This document shows positions 24,569 to 32,000 of a stretch of 32,000 nucleotides of DNA, piece by piece (positions within the stretch are counted from its first letter, which is position 1; each line of letters starts with the position of its first letter). Under the pieces are notes generated by a model. It ran no database searches. It was not told where the DNA came from and worked only from the letters and a program-made list of their open reading frames with translations. A program made the position numbers and the translations under genes. Source of the stretch: Pseudobacteroides cellulosolvens ATCC 35603 = DSM 2933 (GTDB lineage: Bacteria > Bacillota > Clostridia > Acetivibrionales > DSM-2933); NCBI RefSeq assembly GCF_001262605.1, contig NZ_LGTC01000001.1, forward strand, positions 1,071,192-1,103,191, in the 5' to 3' direction.

Positions 24569-24841
24569 TTAACCGCATAACCTGCAGGTGCCAAAAGAAA
24601 CACATGCCTTTAACTGCTCGCATATATATTTATACTCGCTTATACTGATACCATACTTGTCAAGTATCTGCTGTGTAGGCATAGCGGGTTTAAATGCCAT
24701 GTTGCCGCACATATTAGGTCTGCGTTTATCAGGTGAGATATCATACTTATCGCCAAAATCCTTATAATTTGCCTTAATACCGTTAATTTTAAACATTTTA
24801 GTCTCGCATATTGTGCTGTATACGTCTAATTCCAATTTCAT
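24569..24841 (-). CDS. hypothetical 90-aa protein with a C-terminal CxxC
   Basis: ORF-track ORF with GGAGTGG upstream and its own terminator. The protein ends ...CVSFGTCRLCG. I recognise no family. Confidence 0.5.
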   Translation of the reverse strand: MKLELDVYSTICETKMFKINGIKANYKDFGDKYDISPDKRRPNMCGNMAFKPAMPTQQILDKYGISISEYKYICEQLKACVSFGTCRLCG

Positions 24842-25027
24842 TTAAAACCACTCCTTCTATAGACATTTTCATTATTCATAAGGTTAAAATTTTGTTAATT
24901 GTTTGACAATTTAATTTTACTGCAATCAAAACTACCCAACAATTATAATTTTTCAGCCTGTCAAATGGTCTTTTCAGCTACCTGATTGTTAGATACGGTA
25001 TAGAGATTCGTGGTTTTAATCTCCATT

Positions 25028-25072
25028 AAAAAACGCAAAATACCCCCATGAAGATTAATCCTCATGAGGGTA
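25028..25072 (-). terminator. intrinsic terminator downstream of the TnpB-like gene
   Basis: The minus strand has taccctcatga-ggattaatc-tcatgggggta (11-bp stem with one G-U pair) followed by ttttgcgtttttt. Confidence 0.7.
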
Positions 25073-25204
25073 TTGCTAGATAGCTGCTCTTTCACATCAA
25101 AACGTTCTTGTATTGATGTCTTACTCGGTAAGATTTCCATTTAATTATGGAAGTGGTGCGGCAGCAAAAGCACATATTGGTCAGTAATATTAATTTATTA
25201 TATA
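25073..25204 (-). ncRNA. candidate structured RNA (omega/guide-RNA-like) between the TnpB-like stop and the terminator
   Basis: A closing helix pairs 25083-25087 with 25161-25165 (gctgc/gcagc). It encloses three 6-bp hairpins: 25135-25152 (ttccat/atggaa), 25119-25133 (tcttac/gtaaga) and 25095-25118 (catcaa/ttgatg). There is no ORF. The position matches where TnpB-family guide-RNA scaffolds lie. The ends are not defined. Confidence 0.3.
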
Positions 25205-26689
25205 TTAAATATACTCTATCAAATCCATGAAATTTTCAACGCTTTCTAATTTCCTTATAAGGCTTATTCTGGCAGAATGAGCTTTTTTATCTTGAGTCTT
25301 AACTATAAGTTTCGTATCTTCAATTATCTTTTGGATTTCATTCTTAAGCCGCAATAGTTGGTCCTCTTTGTAACTTGTAAAACAATCCAGACCAAGGATT
25401 TTATTGGAAAATACTACTCCACTGTCAACTCTCTTTATATTGATTTTAATTTTTGAAGTATTGTAATCAATAAGCTTTCTTGCTAGATTAAGGCTTCCCA
25501 GCTTGTCTATATCCATTGTGGTTCCACAGCTTGAGCATATTAGCAAATCCTTGTTGAACCTGTTCTTTTTGGAATTCCGCCCACAACTGCAGCATGTATA
25601 ATAAATACCTATAGGGCTTACCTTAATAGGCTTGGGAAGTCCTTTCCATTGAAGCTTGTACTCTAGAAGGCTTACCATTCGGTTATAGTCCTTCCTCTTA
25701 AATCGAGGCAGGTATTGATCCAGATCATTATCACTCCACCCCAACCCATCTCCTCTTTGTGAAAGGTTTTGAACTATTATCTGTGCTTTATGAGAAATGG
25801 CTATATCGGTAATTATATTAGCTGCTTTATGCAGCTTATTTAAAGGTATTCCTGATGAATCATCATTTTTTTCCAGAGTATCAATCTCACCGGATATTAT
25901 TATTTCCCCGTGAGAATTCACAACAGTATAATGAAGGTTGCTTTTTAGCCCTCTGCTAACACCCATATACGCCATAGTGCTTATGCTCTTTGACTCACCC
26001 GCTTCTATTGATATGGCCAGATAATATTCATTATCCCTTACTAAAAGTCTCGCAGTCTTGAAACACTCGGGTGCTTTAGACGCCTCCTTTATAATCCTCT
26101 CCTGCCATTTACCGAAAGAAAGCGGTACAATAATATGAGTTTCCTTCCTTCTCTTTCTTTCCAGCATCTTATTGTCTTTATGAACATGAACCAGGCCTTC
26201 CCTTATATTAGCCTCCGCCGCTGTCCTTGCATTAGGACCGTTAAGCAGATAAAGTTTAACATAATACCTGTCCTTTTCCTTGTCATAAAGCAGGCAGTAA
26301 CCTCTTTTGGTATCGTACCTGCAAAAATAAATAGGACGGAAATAACTGAAGGCTGCTTCTTTATTCACATTTTCCTGGCATACGCTTCCAGTTCTCAAAC
26401 AGTCGGCCATGGCATATGCAAATTCAAGTCTCAAAGAATCTTTAAACGGCTGTACATCGAATTTGTTCAGCTCCTGACTTAAGTTGCTGTCAATCCATTT
26501 TGAAAGTGCCAGTATATTATATTGACCGGCCTTCACTTTAAACCTTTGTTCAAGTTCAGGTAAGCAGTTGCCTGCTTTGTTTATGAGAAATTCAAAGGCC
26601 TTGTTATAGCCAAGTAAAGCATCATTAATAATTTGCTGCTTTGCTTTACTTGGCTTATGAAGTTTTAAAACAATTGTCCTCATCCCCAT
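25205..26689 (-). CDS. TnpB/Cas12f-like RNA-guided-nuclease homologue with substituted RuvC catalytic residues (494 aa)
   Basis: The N-terminus RTIVLKLHKPSKAKQQIINDAL...YNKAF resembles the typical TnpB opening. IIVPLSFGKWQ resembles the wedge-strand motif. The RuvC-I position reads MGVSRGL (S245 where GxDxG is expected). The RuvC-II position reads IIVQNLS (Q307 where E is expected). The zinc finger C366-x2-C369...C385-x2-C388 is intact. RuvC-III reads MDIDKLGSLNLAR, so the Asp is retained. Confidence 0.7.
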   Translation of the reverse strand: MGMRTIVLKLHKPSKAKQQIINDALLGYNKAFEFLINKAGNCLPELEQRFKVKAGQYNILALSKWIDSNLSQELNKFDVQPFKDSLRLEFAYAMADCLRTGSVCQENVNKEAAFSYFRPIYFCRYDTKRGYCLLYDKEKDRYYVKLYLLNGPNARTAAEANIREGLVHVHKDNKMLERKRRKETHIIVPLSFGKWQERIIKEASKAPECFKTARLLVRDNEYYLAISIEAGESKSISTMAYMGVSRGLKSNLHYTVVNSHGEIIISGEIDTLEKNDDSSGIPLNKLHKAANIITDIAISHKAQIIVQNLSQRGDGLGWSDNDLDQYLPRFKRKDYNRMVSLLEYKLQWKGLPKPIKVSPIGIYYTCCSCGRNSKKNRFNKDLLICSSCGTTMDIDKLGSLNLARKLIDYNTSKIKINIKRVDSGVVFSNKILGLDCFTSYKEDQLLRLKNEIQKIIEDTKLIVKTQDKKAHSARISLIRKLESVENFMDLIEYI

Positions 26690-26721: not shown

Positions 26722-29334
26722 TTATTTTCCGCCGTTATAAGCGGTTAGGTATATCTTTTCCAACTCAGACACCAATGGGAGTCTTGGGTTAGCAGTTGTA
26801 CACTGATCTTCAAATGCCTTATCTGCAAGCTCAGCAACCTTGGCATTGAACTTTTTGCTGTCAACCTTGCATTCTGCTATTGTGGAAGGCATATTAAGCT
26901 CTTTCATAAGATCCTTGATGGCTTTTATCAAGCTTTTTACCCCTTCCTCATTGGTTGATGCAGGAAGTCCCAGTGCTTTTGCTATTTCAGCATATTTTTT
27001 GTCTGCAATGAATGTTTCATATTTAGGGAAAGACACAAACTTAGTAGGCTTTTGTGCATTGTACTCTATAACATAAGGTAGAAGTACTGCATTTGCCCTT
27101 CCGTGAGGTATATGGAATTCTCCACCCAGTTTGTGAGCAAGGCTGTGGTTTATTCCCAGGAATGCATTTGTAAATGCCATACCTGCTATACATGAAGCGT
27201 TATGCATTTTTTCTCTTGCCAACGCATCATTGCCATTCTTGTAGGCCCTTGGCAAGTATTCGAACACCAACTGAATAGCCTTTATTGCCAAGCCGTCAGT
27301 AAAATCGGATGCCAGGATGGATACATAGGCTTCAATAGCGTGGGTAAGAACATCCATACCTGTGTCGGCAGTTACTGAAGGCGGTACAGACATTACGTAA
27401 TCAGCATCTATTATTGCAACATCAGGAGTCAATTCATAATCCGCCAGAGGATATTTCACATTTCTTTCTTTATCGGTAATAACCGCAAAGGATGTAACCT
27501 CTGAACCTGTACCCGAAGTGGTGGGAATTGCTACCATCTTTGACTTTTTGCCCAGTTTAGGGAACTTGTAAACTCTCTTTCTTATGTCCATAAACTTAAG
27601 CCTTAATGAATTAAAGTCAGTTTCAGGATGCTCATAGAAAAGCCACATTCCTTTAGCCGCATCCATGGCCGATCCGCCGCCTAAAGCTATTATAACATCT
27701 GGCTGAAACTTGTTCATAAGCTCGCAGCCCTTCATAACAGTCTCAACAGATGGGTCCGGTTCAACATCTGAGAATATCTCACAGTGAACATACTGCTGTC
27801 TTTTTCTAAGGTAGTAAAGAATTTTATCTACATATCCAAGCTTAACCATATATGGGTCGGTTACTATAAATGCTTTTGATATATTAGGCATCTTCTCTAG
27901 GTACTGAGTTGAGCCAAATTCAAAGTATATTTTTTCAGGTATCTTAAACCATTGCATATTCACTCTTCTCCTTGACACTCTTTTTTTGTTGATAAGATTT
28001 GCTGCAGAAACATTCTGAGTTGTTGAATTTTTTCCGTATGTTCCGCATCCTAATGTAAGAGATGGAGTGTTTGTATTGTAAATATCACCGATAGCACCAT
28101 GTGTTGAAGGTGAATTGACTATTAACCTTCCCGATTTTAGCCTCTTTGAAAACTCCTCGATTATTTTCTCGTCGTTGGAGTGTATGACGGATGAGTGTCC
28201 CAAACCTCCGAATTCAACCATCTGTTCAGCTTTCCTTATTCCTTCCTCAGAAGAATCCACAATATAGTATGCAAGGATTGGGCTGAGCTTTTCCCTTGAA
28301 AGAGGGTACTCCGGACCTACATCTTCCTGCTTTGCTATTAGAATTTTTGTATTTTCAGGCACATTTAAACCTGCCATATTTGCTATGGTATAAGCAGATT
28401 GTCCTACAACATTTGGATTCATGGCACACTTTACTTCATCTATGGCCAGCTTTGCCAACTTTTTAGTTTCATCTTCATTTAAGAAATAGCATGAATTGTC
28501 CTTCATAAATTTTTCAAACTCCGCAGAAACCTCACGATCTACGATAACAGCCTGTTCAGATGCACAGATCATCCCGTTGTCGAAGGTCTTTGACAATATA
28601 AGGTCTGTTGCAGCTCTCTTTATATTGGCAGTTTTTTCAATATAACACGGTACATTACCCGGTCCAACACCAAGGGCAGGTTTGCCTGTGCTGTATGCTG
28701 CCTGAACCATTCCTGCTCCTCCGGTTGCAAGTATCAGAGATACACCGCTGTGGTTCATAAGAAGTTGAGTCGCTTCAATTGAGGGTTTTTCTACCCAAAG
28801 TATGCAGTCTTCAGGAGCACCTGCTTCTATAGCAGCGTCCCTCAATACCCTTGCAGCTTCAGCACTGCATTTTTGTGCAGATGGATGGAATGCAAATATA
28901 ATGGGGTTCCTTGCCTTAATTGCTATTATTGCTTTAAACATGGTTGTGGATGTAGGATTTGTGACAGGTGTTACAGCAGCTATTACGCCTACCGGTTCCG
29001 CTACTTCAAAGAAATCTTCATTTTCATTATCGTTTATTATTCCAACAGTTTTCTCGTACTTGATGCTATGGTAAATGTACTCTGTAGAAAATAAATTTTT
29101 TGTGATTTTGTCTTCATAAACACCCCTGCCTGTTTCCTCAACAGCCATTTTAGCAAGTCGCATGTGGTCATCTATTCCGCTTAATGCCATAGCTTTAACG
29201 ATGGCATCGATCTTTTCCTGATCGTATGTCATGAATTTTTCCAATGCTTTTTGTGCCCTTGAAACAAGTTCACCTATTTCCTTATTAACATTAACCTGCT
29301 CATTAACTTGATTGTTTTTAATTTTTTCTGTCAT
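26722..29334 (-). CDS. adhE: bifunctional acetaldehyde-CoA/alcohol dehydrogenase
   Basis: About 870 aa, with an N-terminal aldehyde dehydrogenase domain and a C-terminal iron-type alcohol dehydrogenase domain (GGGSAMDAAK, HxxxH region). I placed the start at the ATG at 29334, 8 nt after AGAGGAG. The track's GTG at 29343 abuts the RBS. Confidence 0.95.
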   Translation of the reverse strand: MTEKIKNNQVNEQVNVNKEIGELVSRAQKALEKFMTYDQEKIDAIVKAMALSGIDDHMRLAKMAVEETGRGVYEDKITKNLFSTEYIYHSIKYEKTVGIINDNENEDFFEVAEPVGVIAAVTPVTNPTSTTMFKAIIAIKARNPIIFAFHPSAQKCSAEAARVLRDAAIEAGAPEDCILWVEKPSIEATQLLMNHSGVSLILATGGAGMVQAAYSTGKPALGVGPGNVPCYIEKTANIKRAATDLILSKTFDNGMICASEQAVIVDREVSAEFEKFMKDNSCYFLNEDETKKLAKLAIDEVKCAMNPNVVGQSAYTIANMAGLNVPENTKILIAKQEDVGPEYPLSREKLSPILAYYIVDSSEEGIRKAEQMVEFGGLGHSSVIHSNDEKIIEEFSKRLKSGRLIVNSPSTHGAIGDIYNTNTPSLTLGCGTYGKNSTTQNVSAANLINKKRVSRRRVNMQWFKIPEKIYFEFGSTQYLEKMPNISKAFIVTDPYMVKLGYVDKILYYLRKRQQYVHCEIFSDVEPDPSVETVMKGCELMNKFQPDVIIALGGGSAMDAAKGMWLFYEHPETDFNSLRLKFMDIRKRVYKFPKLGKKSKMVAIPTTSGTGSEVTSFAVITDKERNVKYPLADYELTPDVAIIDADYVMSVPPSVTADTGMDVLTHAIEAYVSILASDFTDGLAIKAIQLVFEYLPRAYKNGNDALAREKMHNASCIAGMAFTNAFLGINHSLAHKLGGEFHIPHGRANAVLLPYVIEYNAQKPTKFVSFPKYETFIADKKYAEIAKALGLPASTNEEGVKSLIKAIKDLMKELNMPSTIAECKVDSKKFNAKVAELADKAFEDQCTTANPRLPLVSELEKIYLTAYNGGK

Positions 29335-29372
29335 AATGATCACTCCTCTAATCTCTTTATCTTTTTGTCACT

Positions 29373-29430: not shown

Positions 29431-30603
29431 TTAATGGTACTCCAAGGTAACTTGTTTACCCAGTTTCCTCAAATATATCACTATCTCTTCTACAAGTTTC
29501 AGCTTAAGGCTTAAATTAAAAGGAAATTCAGGGTTCTGATGTGCCGGATTCATGGCACGCCCTACTATAAAATGAATATTTGTGCTCTCCTCCAGAAGAA
29601 TTTTTGCTAGTCTCGATGCTCCATCCTTTTTATTTAGGTTTAGAAAATCCTTCATGGTGCTTTCGGATGAATCACAGGCTTTTATATAATCAAGAGTCTT
29701 CCTTAATGTAAGTACACCTTCAGTAGCAAGATCAATTCCATCTATATCAGCTGTTGGTGGTACACTGGGATTGTAGTAGTCAAAGTTTGTCTTTATTTCT
29801 TTTTTTAGAACCCTTGCCACTATTTGCGAGGTAGTACCGCCGCAAACTACCTTTTTTCCTTCCAATGCAGTAAAATCATATATGATCTCTCTATCTTCCT
29901 GTGAATCTATTGGTGGCCCCACCATTACGTTGAGCCTAACGGGCTTTCGTATATTGACGGTTACCACAGTTGTATCGTCACCGGGCTCCTGGGCATACAG
30001 GTTGTCACACACCGAAAGCAGCAGCTTTGTAATTGCTTTTGCAGAAATATCGTTTTTATATGTCCTTTGAATGTACTCTGAAACATTGTTCCACTGCCAT
30101 CCAAGGTTCAAGGTTTGACCGATTCCGGCATGTATTACTCCATCACTTACTATAATAAACATGTCATCAGGAGTTACCGTAAACCTGGCTTCCTTGATTT
30201 TCTTACCGCTAATTAACCTTATTGTTGTTTCTATGTTAAAAGGTTTCCCTTTTCTTAGCCTGAACACAGATGGATTATCGAATTCAACCAGATACCCTTC
30301 ACCGGAGTTGAAAACCTGAAGTATTGAAAAGGTGGAATACGCAATTCCTCTTTCCCGGCAAACCGGCAGTGTATTTGCAATTGTTTCAACTGCTTCATCG
30401 ATACTTGAACCGTTTGCCATAATTGTTCCAATAATTTTGGCAGTAAGGGTAGCAAGGATATTTGCCTTAACCCCGCTCCCAAGCCCATCTGCAAGCACTA
30501 CTACAACGGAATTTTCATCTCTTATGATCTCAACCTTATCTCCGCACAGTTCCTCATTATGCTTGTTAAGGCTTTCAAAACTTGTATCTATATATAAGCT
30601 CAC
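29431..30603 (-). CDS. SpoIIE/PP2C-family serine phosphatase (HfsC-like), 390 aa
   Basis: CGDKVEII...VVVLADGLGSGVKANILATL and ...FIIVSDGVIHAG.. are PP2C/SpoIIE motifs. The gene overlaps the upstream gene by 4 nt. Confidence 0.8.
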   Translation of the reverse strand: MSLYIDTSFESLNKHNEELCGDKVEIIRDENSVVVVLADGLGSGVKANILATLTAKIIGTIMANGSSIDEAVETIANTLPVCRERGIAYSTFSILQVFNSGEGYLVEFDNPSVFRLRKGKPFNIETTIRLISGKKIKEARFTVTPDDMFIIVSDGVIHAGIGQTLNLGWQWNNVSEYIQRTYKNDISAKAITKLLLSVCDNLYAQEPGDDTTVVTVNIRKPVRLNVMVGPPIDSQEDREIIYDFTALEGKKVVCGGTTSQIVARVLKKEIKTNFDYYNPSVPPTADIDGIDLATEGVLTLRKTLDYIKACDSSESTMKDFLNLNKKDGASRLAKILLEESTNIHFIVGRAMNPAHQNPEFPFNLSLKLKLVEEIVIYLRKLGKQVTLEYH

Positions 30604-32000
30604 TTAACATCACCCATTTCCGACATGATCGACTTTTTGAGCTTGGTTAGTGCAACCTTCGTTTCAGCTGTTGTTTCTCCTAAGAGGCTGGCAATCTCTT
30701 GTGCAACTCTCATTTGCTTTTCTATTACCTTTTGTGCAAGCTCCACATTCTCTTCACGGATTTTATGCATCTTTTGTATTTGTCTTTCCTCATCCGTTAT
30801 ATCCTTTATAACTACAACTACTATGTTTTGGTCGGGTACGTAAATTATGGACTGAGTGACAGTCATGTCGTACTTTTCATAATAGTATTTTTCATCATAT
30901 ATATTTTTCTTACTGTCAATAACAAACTGGAAATCTCCGCATTCCAATACCTCAAAAATACTTTTACCTTCAAGGGATGATTTATTTAGTCCAAATATCT
31001 TCTGAGCCGAGTAATTGGCTTCCTGTATGCACAGCTTCTCATTAAGGGCAAAAATAGCATTTGGTGTAGTGTTAATAATTAGGTTGGACATGGACTCGGC
31101 TCTTTCTCTCATATATGGCAAACACATATGGAGTTGGGCTCTGTTGTTATAAACGGCAATTGCTTTGTCCCTGCAGCTTGAATAACCGCATGCCCCGCAA
31201 TTTAATTCCTTATCCGCTGTAAACTTCCCTATACTGTTCAATATACCTTGTATAGCCGACTCTGAGGGTACTGCACCTTTCTTTTGCATGTCAAAGAAAT
31301 TTCTTTTTAAATCAACCTTCGAATCTCTCGTACTTACAAGTTTTTCTTCTTTTAATCCACGTTTTAAATAGGTTAGCAACCTTCTTCTTGCCTCTAAAAA
31401 TCCACCCTTTATATGCTTCATGCATGGACCGCCAATGCATCCGCCTGAACAGCTGTTCATTTCAATAAAGTAATTTTCAAGGCCGTCATTTTTTATAGAA
31501 TCCAGTATCTTTATGCATCTTTCTACTCCATCCACACTGAGACACTGGTAATTTTTATTGTTTCTGCTTTCAAGCGTTTTAATAATTCCTCCGGGAACTG
31601 GATAAATTCTTGCTCTAAGCTCCCTTACTCCCTTTATTTCATCAGTTAAATCGATATCATCGGTAATACCTTCCTCTAAAAGCCATGCATCCAATTCTTC
31701 AAATGTTATTGCTGCATCTATTACTCCTCTGGTTTGAAGATCATTACACTCATCCTTTTTAGAAAGGCATGGTCCAATAAATACTACCTTTATCCTCGGC
31801 CCATACATTTCACGAAGCATCTTTCCATGGGCTATCATTGGAGATACAACTGGAGCCAACTGGTCTACCAGCTCAGGATAATATTTTTGAACAAGCAGTG
31901 TAATTGATGGACAGGCAGAAGTTATAATATTTTTCATCTTCTTTTCTTTGATCAATTGATCATACTTCTTGGAAACCTGTGCAGCACCTACCGCTGTTTC
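30600..32000 (-). CDS. sensory [FeFe]-hydrogenase-like protein with C-terminal Cys motif and PAS domain (HydS/HfsB-like); 5'-partial
   Basis: H-cluster-domain motifs TSACPS and FIGPCLSKKDE are present. The C-terminal part carries CGACGYSSC and a PAS-like region. The frame stays open from the track start (a TTG at 31955) to the window edge (...ETAVGAAQVSKKYDQLIKEKK...), so the gene starts beyond 32000. Confidence 0.75.
   Translation of the reverse strand, partial: ETAVGAAQVSKKYDQLIKEKKMKNIITSACPSITLLVQKYYPELVDQLAPVVSPMIAHGKMLREMYGPRIKVVFIGPCLSKKDECNDLQTRGVIDAAITFEELDAWLLEEGITDDIDLTDEIKGVRELRARIYPVPGGIIKTLESRNNKNYQCLSVDGVERCIKILDSIKNDGLENYFIEMNSCSGGCIGGPCMKHIKGGFLEARRRLLTYLKRGLKEEKLVSTRDSKVDLKRNFFDMQKKGAVPSESAIQGILNSIGKFTADKELNCGACGYSSCRDKAIAVYNNRAQLHMCLPYMRERAESMSNLIINTTPNAIFALNEKLCIQEANYSAQKIFGLNKSSLEGKSIFEVLECGDFQFVIDSKKNIYDEKYYYEKYDMTVTQSIIYVPDQNIVVVVIKDITDEERQIQKMHKIREENVELAQKVIEKQMRVAQEIASLLGETTAETKVALTKLKKSIMSEMGDVK

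Follow-up and report, generated by a model that had tools for sequence, protein, structure and literature searches.

A pseudoknotted RNA encoded next to a nuclease-dead TnpB/Cas12f-like protein in clostridial hydrogen-sensor operons: a probable partner RNA and its candidate operator

The omega-RNA, or reRNA, of ISDra2 TnpB consists of a 116-nucleotide (nt) scaffold, in which a triplex, a pseudoknot and stems 1 and 2 are found, and a 16-nt guide that is derived from the flanking DNA. The TldR proteins are TnpB-like repressors with an inactivated RuvC domain, for which oppF- and fliC-associated clades have been described (Wiegand et al., 10.1101/2023.11.30.569447; Xiao et al., 10.64898/2026.09.22.753285); Wiegand et al. 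distinguish oppF-, fliC- and Clostridial flagellin/csrA-associated clades, and hydrogenase and phosphatase go unmentioned in the main text of that study. The sensory hydrogenases HydS and HfsB have been linked in the literature to the regulation of hydrogenase and adhE expression (PMC5707799, PMC11837493; "regulatory linkage" being the wording of PMC5707799), with no output regulator named, and literature searches that paired TnpB with hydrogenase, HydS or PP2C gave no relevant result. Here we analyze a 32,000-nt stretch of the genome of Pseudobacteroides cellulosolvens ATCC 35603 = DSM 2933 (contig NZ_LGTC01000001.1, positions 1,071,192 to 1,103,191; hereafter the window), in which a structured RNA is encoded directly 3′ of the gene for a TnpB-like protein, TnpBL, at the end of a hydrogen-sensor operon. 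We argue that this RNA is very likely a dedicated partner of TnpBL, descended from an omega-RNA or guide-RNA scaffold and ended by its own terminator, and we weigh the more tentative proposal that the two together read a conserved operator upstream of hydrogenase genes.

The structured RNA occupies window positions 25076–25178 on the minus strand, the strand of every window feature given below, and a terminator hairpin follows it directly. The initial annotation of this region, made from the letters of the DNA, had proposed a cloverleaf-like guide-RNA scaffold in which one helix encloses three hairpins, and the helix itself is as described in both sequence and fold: in the minus-strand fold of 25020–25210, GCUGC (25161–25165) pairs with GCAGC (25083–25087) around the three hairpins, with a minimum free energy (MFE) of −51.8 kcal/mol, a value that none of 200 dinucleotide shuffles equalled (−33.9 ± 4.0; z = −4.5). 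The cloverleaf topology has to be given up, because GCUGC sits inside the loop, UUUUGCUGCC, of a conserved 5′ hairpin, P1 (25156–25173, formed by GUGC at 25170–25173 and GCAC at 25156–25159), so that the supposed closing helix is the second stem of an H-type pseudoknot and not an acceptor-like stem. GCUGC is thus the pseudoknot 5′ strand, and 99.7% of its cells are paired with 25083–25087. Downstream of P1 come hairpin H1 (25135–25152), present in the MFE fold, variable, optional in the family and missing in the Ruminiclostridium group; the central, universally conserved hairpin H2 (UCUUAC-CGA-GUAAGA, 25119–25133), which shows covariation; and hairpin H3 (25094–25118), whose position is kept and whose sequence is unrelated in all homologues inspected. 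The scaffold closes with a conserved GAAAG, one variable base and the pseudoknot 3′ strand GCAGC (25083–25093), in columns that are nearly invariant. Between the pseudoknot helix and the terminator lies an unpaired stretch, UAUCUAGC(A), whose first 5–6 nt are invariant in the family and which contains the candidate fixed mini-guide UAUCUA (25077–25082). The intrinsic terminator that would end the RNA (25028–25074) was correctly anticipated together with its U-tract, but the terminator scan gives a hairpin of 16 pairs (25039–25074), not the 11 base pairs first proposed, with a U-run that extends to about 25028. A scan of the element for tRNA and tmRNA gave no match, and Rfam returned no family for it at the gathering threshold or at E ≤ 10.

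Conservation of this architecture was assessed in 80 homologous loci that were fetched for comparison, with a covariance-model search over 81 sources, each extended by ±10 kb, and with pair counting over 63 distinct homologous sequences for three helices (P1, the pseudoknot helix and H2). After the stop codon, the homologous loci display the same succession: GUGCUUUUGCUGCCGCAC as the conserved 5′ part, a hairpin that some members lack, the CUUAC-CGA-GUAAG hairpin common to all, a further hairpin whose sequence varies, and GAAAG-N-GCAGCUAUCU. The three helices are 89.9% paired over the 63 sequences, and their covariation score of 0.347 exceeds both the 0.202 of column shuffles (0/500) and the values of ≤ 0.10 obtained with slid registers. 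Changes on both sides occur in six of seven aligned pairs of P1 (for example, 13 sequences replace C-G by U-A and 4 replace U-A by C-G) and in five of six pairs of H2, where 95% of cells are paired, and the pseudoknot helix shows compensatory changes from G-C to A-U in 8 sequences and from C-G to U-A in 2. The structure is therefore conserved with compensatory change downstream of orthologous genes, as the initial annotation required of a genuine scaffold. Three inner hairpins are present in 43 family members and two in 28, and the scaffold has a median length of 96 nt.

The pairing of RNA and protein gene is equally strict. In 77 of the 81 sources there is exactly one covariance-model match, directly 3′ of TnpBL and on the same strand, and none elsewhere within ±10 kb. 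The 6.88-Mb genome of P. cellulosolvens holds one strong RNA match and one protein gene; a putative second RNA copy at C1:3124537 (25.6 bits, weak) was rejected, as it lies inside a transketolase open reading frame (ORF). Among 150 evenly sampled Clostridia genomes, four strong RNA matches (E ≤ 3e-16) adjoin the four protein matches, and one weak RNA match (E 4e-5) falls in a genome without the TnpBL protein. The RNA starts 0–10 nt after the stop codon in many loci, and 26 of 77 loci have a −10-like box no more than 20 nt ahead of P1, compared with 8 and 4 in control windows, an excess that hints at an own promoter for the RNA in at least some lineages. In position, strand, size and level of structure the element thus resembles a TnpB-family guide RNA, as had been supposed, with its median of 96 nt, its pseudoknot and its one-to-one association with the protein gene, and it is on these grounds that we infer an RNA that is expressed and very likely dedicated to TnpBL.

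The 3′ end of the RNA is where the resemblance to a programmable guide RNA ends. The single-stranded 3′ segment consists of UAUCU and about 5 further nt (approximately 10 nt unpaired), the TATCT core being present in 65 of 77 family members, and a hairpin with a T-run follows in 71 of 77 homologues, with a start at a median of 5 nt (mostly 4–6) past UAUCU and a median free energy of −22 kcal/mol. The 3′ segment had been assumed to be variable, but its first 5–6 nt are invariant across the family; likewise, the suggestion that a guide might be short or might overlap the terminator stem holds for its shortness and fails for the overlap, because the terminator arms change by compensation in close relatives (CCCUCAUGA/UCAUGAGGG to CCCCCAUGA/UCAUGGGGG), which places the stem under selection as a hairpin and not as a guide. 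A long guide in the terminator arm was rejected both for this co-variation and because the tails show no excess of intergenic matches. The 12- to 16-mers of the window tail find no match in the own genome except a 14-mer at C1:6528855, inside a histidine-kinase ORF, and TATCTAGCAA has no further intergenic copy there. Across loci, the tails match the intergenic DNA within ±3 kb and within ±10 kb of their own locus no better than permuted tails do, the longest match to local intergenic DNA being 7.16 nt for own and 6.94 nt for permuted tails, and a 10-nt guide of the form UAUCU plus N5 is not enriched in local intergenic DNA. A 13-mer tail match at locus L035 was discarded, as it lies inside the hydS coding region and is within the expectation from multiple testing. 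A lineage-variable 3′ guide of at least 9 nt complementary to a target flanked by a target-adjacent motif (TAM) was not found.

TnpBL, the presumed protein partner that would bind this RNA, is a 494-amino-acid (aa) TnpB/Cas12f-like protein encoded at 25205–26689. Pfam detects a Cas12f1-like TNB domain in it (4e-8), with TnpB matches below threshold, and a profile of 36 TnpBL homologues matches solved TnpB and Cas12f chains in the half that comprises RuvC and the zinc ribbon, with no sequence-level PDB match for the N-terminal half. An AlphaFold2 model (pLDDT 84.6) was matched over its whole length by Foldseek to AsCas12f (7wju, E 4e-16) as the top hit, then to TnpB (8h1j and 8iaz) and dCas12f (9n9c). 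In the 36 homologues the RuvC-I position is occupied by S, C, A or G (GVSRGL) and the RuvC-II position mostly by Q (IVQNL), whereas the third acidic residue (D/E) and the CxxC..CxxC motif are kept; with two of three RuvC residues lost family-wide, TnpBL is, by its sequence, a nuclease-dead and domesticated protein. The two properties by which a TldR-type protein is recognized, a TnpB fold and a degenerate RuvC DED triad, are thus both present, as is a stable, non-transposon association with specific host genes, the operon context being fixed across families at 30–80% protein identity. There are at least 268 TnpBL protein clusters, all of them from Clostridia-type genomes and nearly all represented on only 1–3 contigs, and the gene is single-copy in the genome studied here. 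Two further features of the family deserve description: a conserved C-terminal extension of approximately 90 aa after the zinc ribbon (residues about 405–494), composed of three strands and helices and ending in FMDLIEYI, and an invariant QPFKDSL motif in the N-terminal part, either of which may possibly take part in contacts with a partner or with the TAM.

The genes around TnpBL form a recurrent hydrogen-sensor module. Its typical order is NuoE-like HydC, NuoF-like HydB, HydA, an optional 93-aa Cys protein (Cys93), Fd83 (an 83-aa thioredoxin-like [2Fe-2S] ferredoxin), HydS, a SpoIIE/PP2C phosphatase, an optional adhE, TnpBL and the RNA. The order from Fd83 through HydS, PP2C and, where present, adhE to TnpBL and the RNA is found in about 70 of 77 loci, with genes overlapping or closely spaced and TnpBL as the last gene, and HydS, PP2C and TnpBL overlap or lie only a few bases apart and so belong to one operon. 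In the window, the gene for the HydS-type sensory [FeFe]-hydrogenase, which is cut by the window end, and that for the SpoIIE/PP2C phosphatase together span 29431–32000 (Pfam Fe_hyd_lg_C, FeS and PAS for the former, SpoIIE for the latter), and adhE (26722–29343) lies between PP2C and TnpBL, an insertion seen in 13 loci, this window included. Locus comparison revealed no conserved kinase or STAS partner in the module and no other conserved DNA-binding protein. Downstream of the RNA lies Cys90 (24569–24841), a 90-aa Cys-rich ORF that matches no Pfam family and that occurs near TnpBL in nine loci, either downstream of it or between adhE and TnpBL. A relative that lacks both TnpBL and the RNA, L171 (G063:C55:13257-18071), carries a PP2C gene immediately ahead of a type-A hydABC operon, without the promoter motif described below at that place; HydS/PP2C modules accordingly occur both with and without the TnpBL–RNA pair.

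The promoter regions of the associated operons share a conserved, non-palindromic motif, AAAACC(G/T)TATCTA(A/T)(A/T)AAT. The pattern CC[GT]TATCTA has 45 intergenic copies in 40 loci, as against 3.6 ± 2.4 (maximum 13) for 150 shuffled patterns, and 42 of the 45 copies are directed at a gene downstream on their own strand, the median distance to its start being 160 nt; the genes concerned are those for NuoE (22), Cys90 (5), Cys93 (5), HydS (4) and Fd83 (3). The copy in the window, ACCGTATCTAACAAT (24985–24999), is situated just past the RNA terminator and 157 nt upstream of Cys90, and it offers ACCG as a candidate TAM with TATCTA... as the target. Because Cys90 is preceded by the motif, at approximately 160 nt, in five loci, it is likely a member of the regulon and not a partner of the RNA. 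The own genome contains four intergenic ACCGTATCTA sites: 149 nt ahead of hydC of hydABC, 157 nt ahead of Cys90, 278 nt ahead of the unlinked gene for a 1141-aa [FeFe]-hydrogenase, and one elsewhere, those outside the window lying at G000:C1:1108649, 6088336 and 6065778. The 1141-aa protein (G000:C1:6088614-6092039, L179), encoded 5 Mb from the window, is a fusion of 2Fe-2S, GltD-like NAD(P)H oxidoreductase and [FeFe]-hydrogenase (Fe_hyd_lg_C plus Fe_hyd_SSU) parts. In other TnpBL-positive genomes, unlinked sites precede a second hydABC, a rubrerythrin–FeADH pair and FeADH. In three TnpBL-negative relatives, a small sample, matches to the strict pattern occur only inside ORFs, and in one of the three PP2C-hydABC is present while motif and TnpBL were not found. 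Two local arrangements may be recorded here. In the Ruminiclostridium group (L118, L103, L106, L120, L111, L122 and others), the motif upstream of NuoE is followed at fixed spacing by conserved blocks, GATTGTA..., TATATAAACATTG and GATAAAAAAATAACAAT, which probably represent the hydABC promoter and another operator; and at L097 (3456–3510) a tandem pair of motifs, 28 nt apart, lies upstream of the Fd83-HydS operon (AAAAACCGTATCTAAATAAT...AAAAACCGTATCAATAAT).

RNA and motif share a hexamer. The unpaired UAUCUA of the RNA is identical to the motif core TATCTA, and it stands at the position where the guide of a TnpB-family RNA starts; on the guide-identical strand, the core is preceded 5′ by a conserved ACCK, in the position required of a TAM. 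In the window, the RNA segment UAUCUAGCAAU agrees with its two nearest sites at 10/11 (24985–24999) and 9/11 positions. Complementarity between the 3′ segment and genomic promoters, which the initial annotation had named as a check, shows no excess over permuted tails when the tail is compared with nearby intergenic DNA, and only UAUCU(A) matches the candidate operator. The explanation that we favor overall, to which we give a little more than an even chance, is a TldR-like ribonucleoprotein (RNP) with a minimal, fixed guide that reads the operator AAAACCK|TATCTA|WWAAT. The RNA would be transcribed either from its own promoter, located where the ORF ends, or as part of the operon mRNA, with its 3′ end at the built-in terminator, and would fold into a scaffold of about 100 nt in which the loop of the 5′ hairpin pairs with the 3′ end as a pseudoknot around two or three inner hairpins. 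In place of a long programmable guide, it would expose approximately 10 unpaired nt, with UAUCU(A) invariant; TnpBL would read ACCK as the TAM, and the RNA would pair with TATCTA, at operators that precede, by about 150 nt, hydABC and further [FeFe]-hydrogenase genes as well as the sensor operon, genes for small Cys-rich proteins and those for Fe-ADH and rubrerythrin. It is plausible, with a chance that we put at close to even, that such an RNP, with ACCK as TAM and UAUCUA as fixed mini-guide, controls a hydrogenase regulon downstream of HydS and PP2C, its activity being set by the co-encoded hydrogen sensor and phosphatase. The broadest form of the proposal, in which the TnpBL–RNA complex would be the output of the HydS H2 sensor in Clostridia, an asymmetric operator of 11–16 base pairs would be read partly by protein and partly by mini-guide, and switching of the hydrogenase, Fe-ADH/rubrerythrin and small Cys-protein operons by H2 would depend on PP2C, is put forward tentatively and at somewhat less than an even chance; the direction of regulation and the signaling link to HydS and PP2C are what we infer at this last step.

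Several observations weigh against a reading of the operator by the RNA. The match between RNA and motif comprises only 5–6 nt and was found post hoc, and a hybrid of 5–6 base pairs is far below the 9–16 nt of known TnpB and TldR guides. Past UAUCU, complementarity extends over 1.08 consecutive nt compared with 0.90 when permuted (p about 0.04), with total matches not significant, and at position +1 the RNA frequently has G against A in the DNA. No clear copy of the motif was found in Christensenella and most Caproiciproducens, the clades that diverge most, and the motif could belong to a separate transcription factor. Lineages with a variant core are of mixed bearing: L139 and L140 have UAUUU with CCCGTATTTG sites, and L150 has UGUUU with TGTTT as its top match, whereas L125 is discordant, its RNA keeping UAUCU while its site reads TATTT.

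In the closest competitor of the favored explanation, the RNA is a guide-less cofactor: a relic omega-RNA scaffold would only fold or stabilize TnpBL, or the terminator hairpin would fill the heteroduplex channel, and the DNA would be recognized, if at all, either by TnpBL without help from the RNA or by a different transcription factor, the identity of UAUCUA and TATCTA being either coincidental or due to a place for UAUCU in the scaffold core (for example, in a triplex with the conserved UUUU and GAAAG). A terminator stem that begins about 5 nt past UAUCU would suit such a cofactor, as would the invariance of UAUCU, which behaves as scaffold positions do, the lack of any co-evolving extension of the complementarity, and the existence of a triplex next to the pseudoknot in TnpB and TldR scaffolds. 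We nevertheless regard the cofactor role as less likely than the favored explanation, though well ahead of the remaining alternatives, because the chance of finding a given hexamer inside a conserved motif of approximately 16 nt is well under 1%, and because this hexamer takes the place of the guide in the proper strand and with a conserved TAM-like flank; in addition, the module has no second conserved DNA-binding protein, and the motif lacks the symmetry typical of dimeric operators.

As a cis-acting element of the 3′ untranslated region, the RNA would act as a terminator and stabilizer, or as an autoregulatory protein site, for the TnpBL/HydS/PP2C mRNA and not in trans on DNA, which agrees with its location at the 3′ end of the operon, 0–10 nt past the stop codon in many loci, and with the occurrence of a strict −10-like box in only 26 of 77 loci; yet an omega-RNA-like, pseudoknotted scaffold of about 100 nt with strong covariation exceeds what a terminator needs, and 3′-encoded RNAs of this kind are known to be bound by TnpB-family proteins, so that we hold this to be improbable. 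The initial annotation had also allowed for a leader or riboswitch of the 90-aa gene, since the element lies upstream of Cys90 on the same strand, but a 16-base-pair terminator and U-run stand between the two, Rfam gives no match even at E ≤ 10, and of the 77 loci in which TnpBL is followed by the RNA, only a handful have the 90-aa gene downstream, many of the neighbors being on the opposite strand. This idea is refuted by synteny and carries a negligible probability. Hardly more credible is an IS200/IS605-type transposon, still mobile or mobile until recently, of which the element would form the right end and omega-RNA, with flanking DNA as the tail: such a transposon would be expected to carry a TnpB/Cas12f homologue followed 3′ by an RNA, but there is one copy per genome in an operon context that is fixed at 30–80% identity, neither TnpA nor repeated ends were seen, and the RuvC residues are lost family-wide.

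Should the RNP with a fixed guide exist as proposed, it would be an RNA-guided transcription factor in which the guide has been frozen into a universal operator reader and a terminator hairpin has been fused to it. With at least 268 clusters in many Clostridia families, the protein would represent a new and widely distributed clade of TnpB/Cas12f domestication, and an RNA cut down to a scaffold, a fixed 5–6-nt reader and a terminator would be an end-point of guide degeneration that has not been described for TldR, Cas12k, Cas12m or dCas12f. With a motif before hydABC and a candidate regulator in the sensor operon, the question of the HydS output becomes directly testable, which also bears on the engineering of ethanol and H2 yield in cellulolytic Clostridia.

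Among the described systems, the TnpBL–RNA pair is most readily compared with TldR, with which it shares a RuvC-dead TnpB-family protein outside a transposon, an RNA right after the gene, a scaffold of similar size (about 97–100 nt in TldR) with a pseudoknot and two or more stems, a short guide (9–11 nt in the oppF clade) and proposed targets that are TAM-flanked promoter sites of linked genes. It differs in its association with an Fd-HydS-PP2C hydrogen-sensor operon, hydABC and adhE, which is undescribed for TldR; in the larger size of TnpBL (about 490–540 aa), with its conserved C-terminal extension and a fold closest to Cas12f; in an unpaired 3′ segment that is family-invariant instead of lineage-specific and of which 5–6 nt match the candidate target; and in the terminator hairpin fused 4–6 nt past UAUCU. 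The omega-RNA of TnpB has in common with the TnpBL RNA its place relative to the ORF, its strand, its stems and a pseudoknot that involves the nucleotides immediately preceding the guide, but the omega-RNA overlaps the ORF, whereas the RNA of the immobile TnpBL element begins after the stop codon, carries no flank-derived guide and is paired with a protein that lacks the nuclease residues for RNA processing and DNA cleavage. The dCas12f–sigmaE system of Bacteroidetes (PMC13472631) likewise combines a nuclease-dead, miniature Cas12f/TnpB fold with a dedicated guide RNA, exapted for the control of operon transcription, and the dCas12f structures 9n9c and 9n9m are among the fold matches of TnpBL; the TnpBL module contains neither a sigma factor nor a CRISPR-like repeat, and it belongs to another phylum with other partner genes. 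With the HydS/HfsB modules (Ruminococcus albus HydS; Thermoanaerobacterium hfsABCD; PMC5707799, PMC11837493), finally, the locus shares a PAS-containing sensory hydrogenase encoded next to a PP2C-type phosphatase and catalytic hydrogenase genes, but the described modules have not been reported with a TnpB-like protein or an RNA, both of which are conserved operon members here. What appears new relative to TldR and the omega-RNA is thus the association with hydrogen-sensor genes, a putative frozen guide of at most 6 nt, the fused terminator and a larger, Cas12f-like protein.

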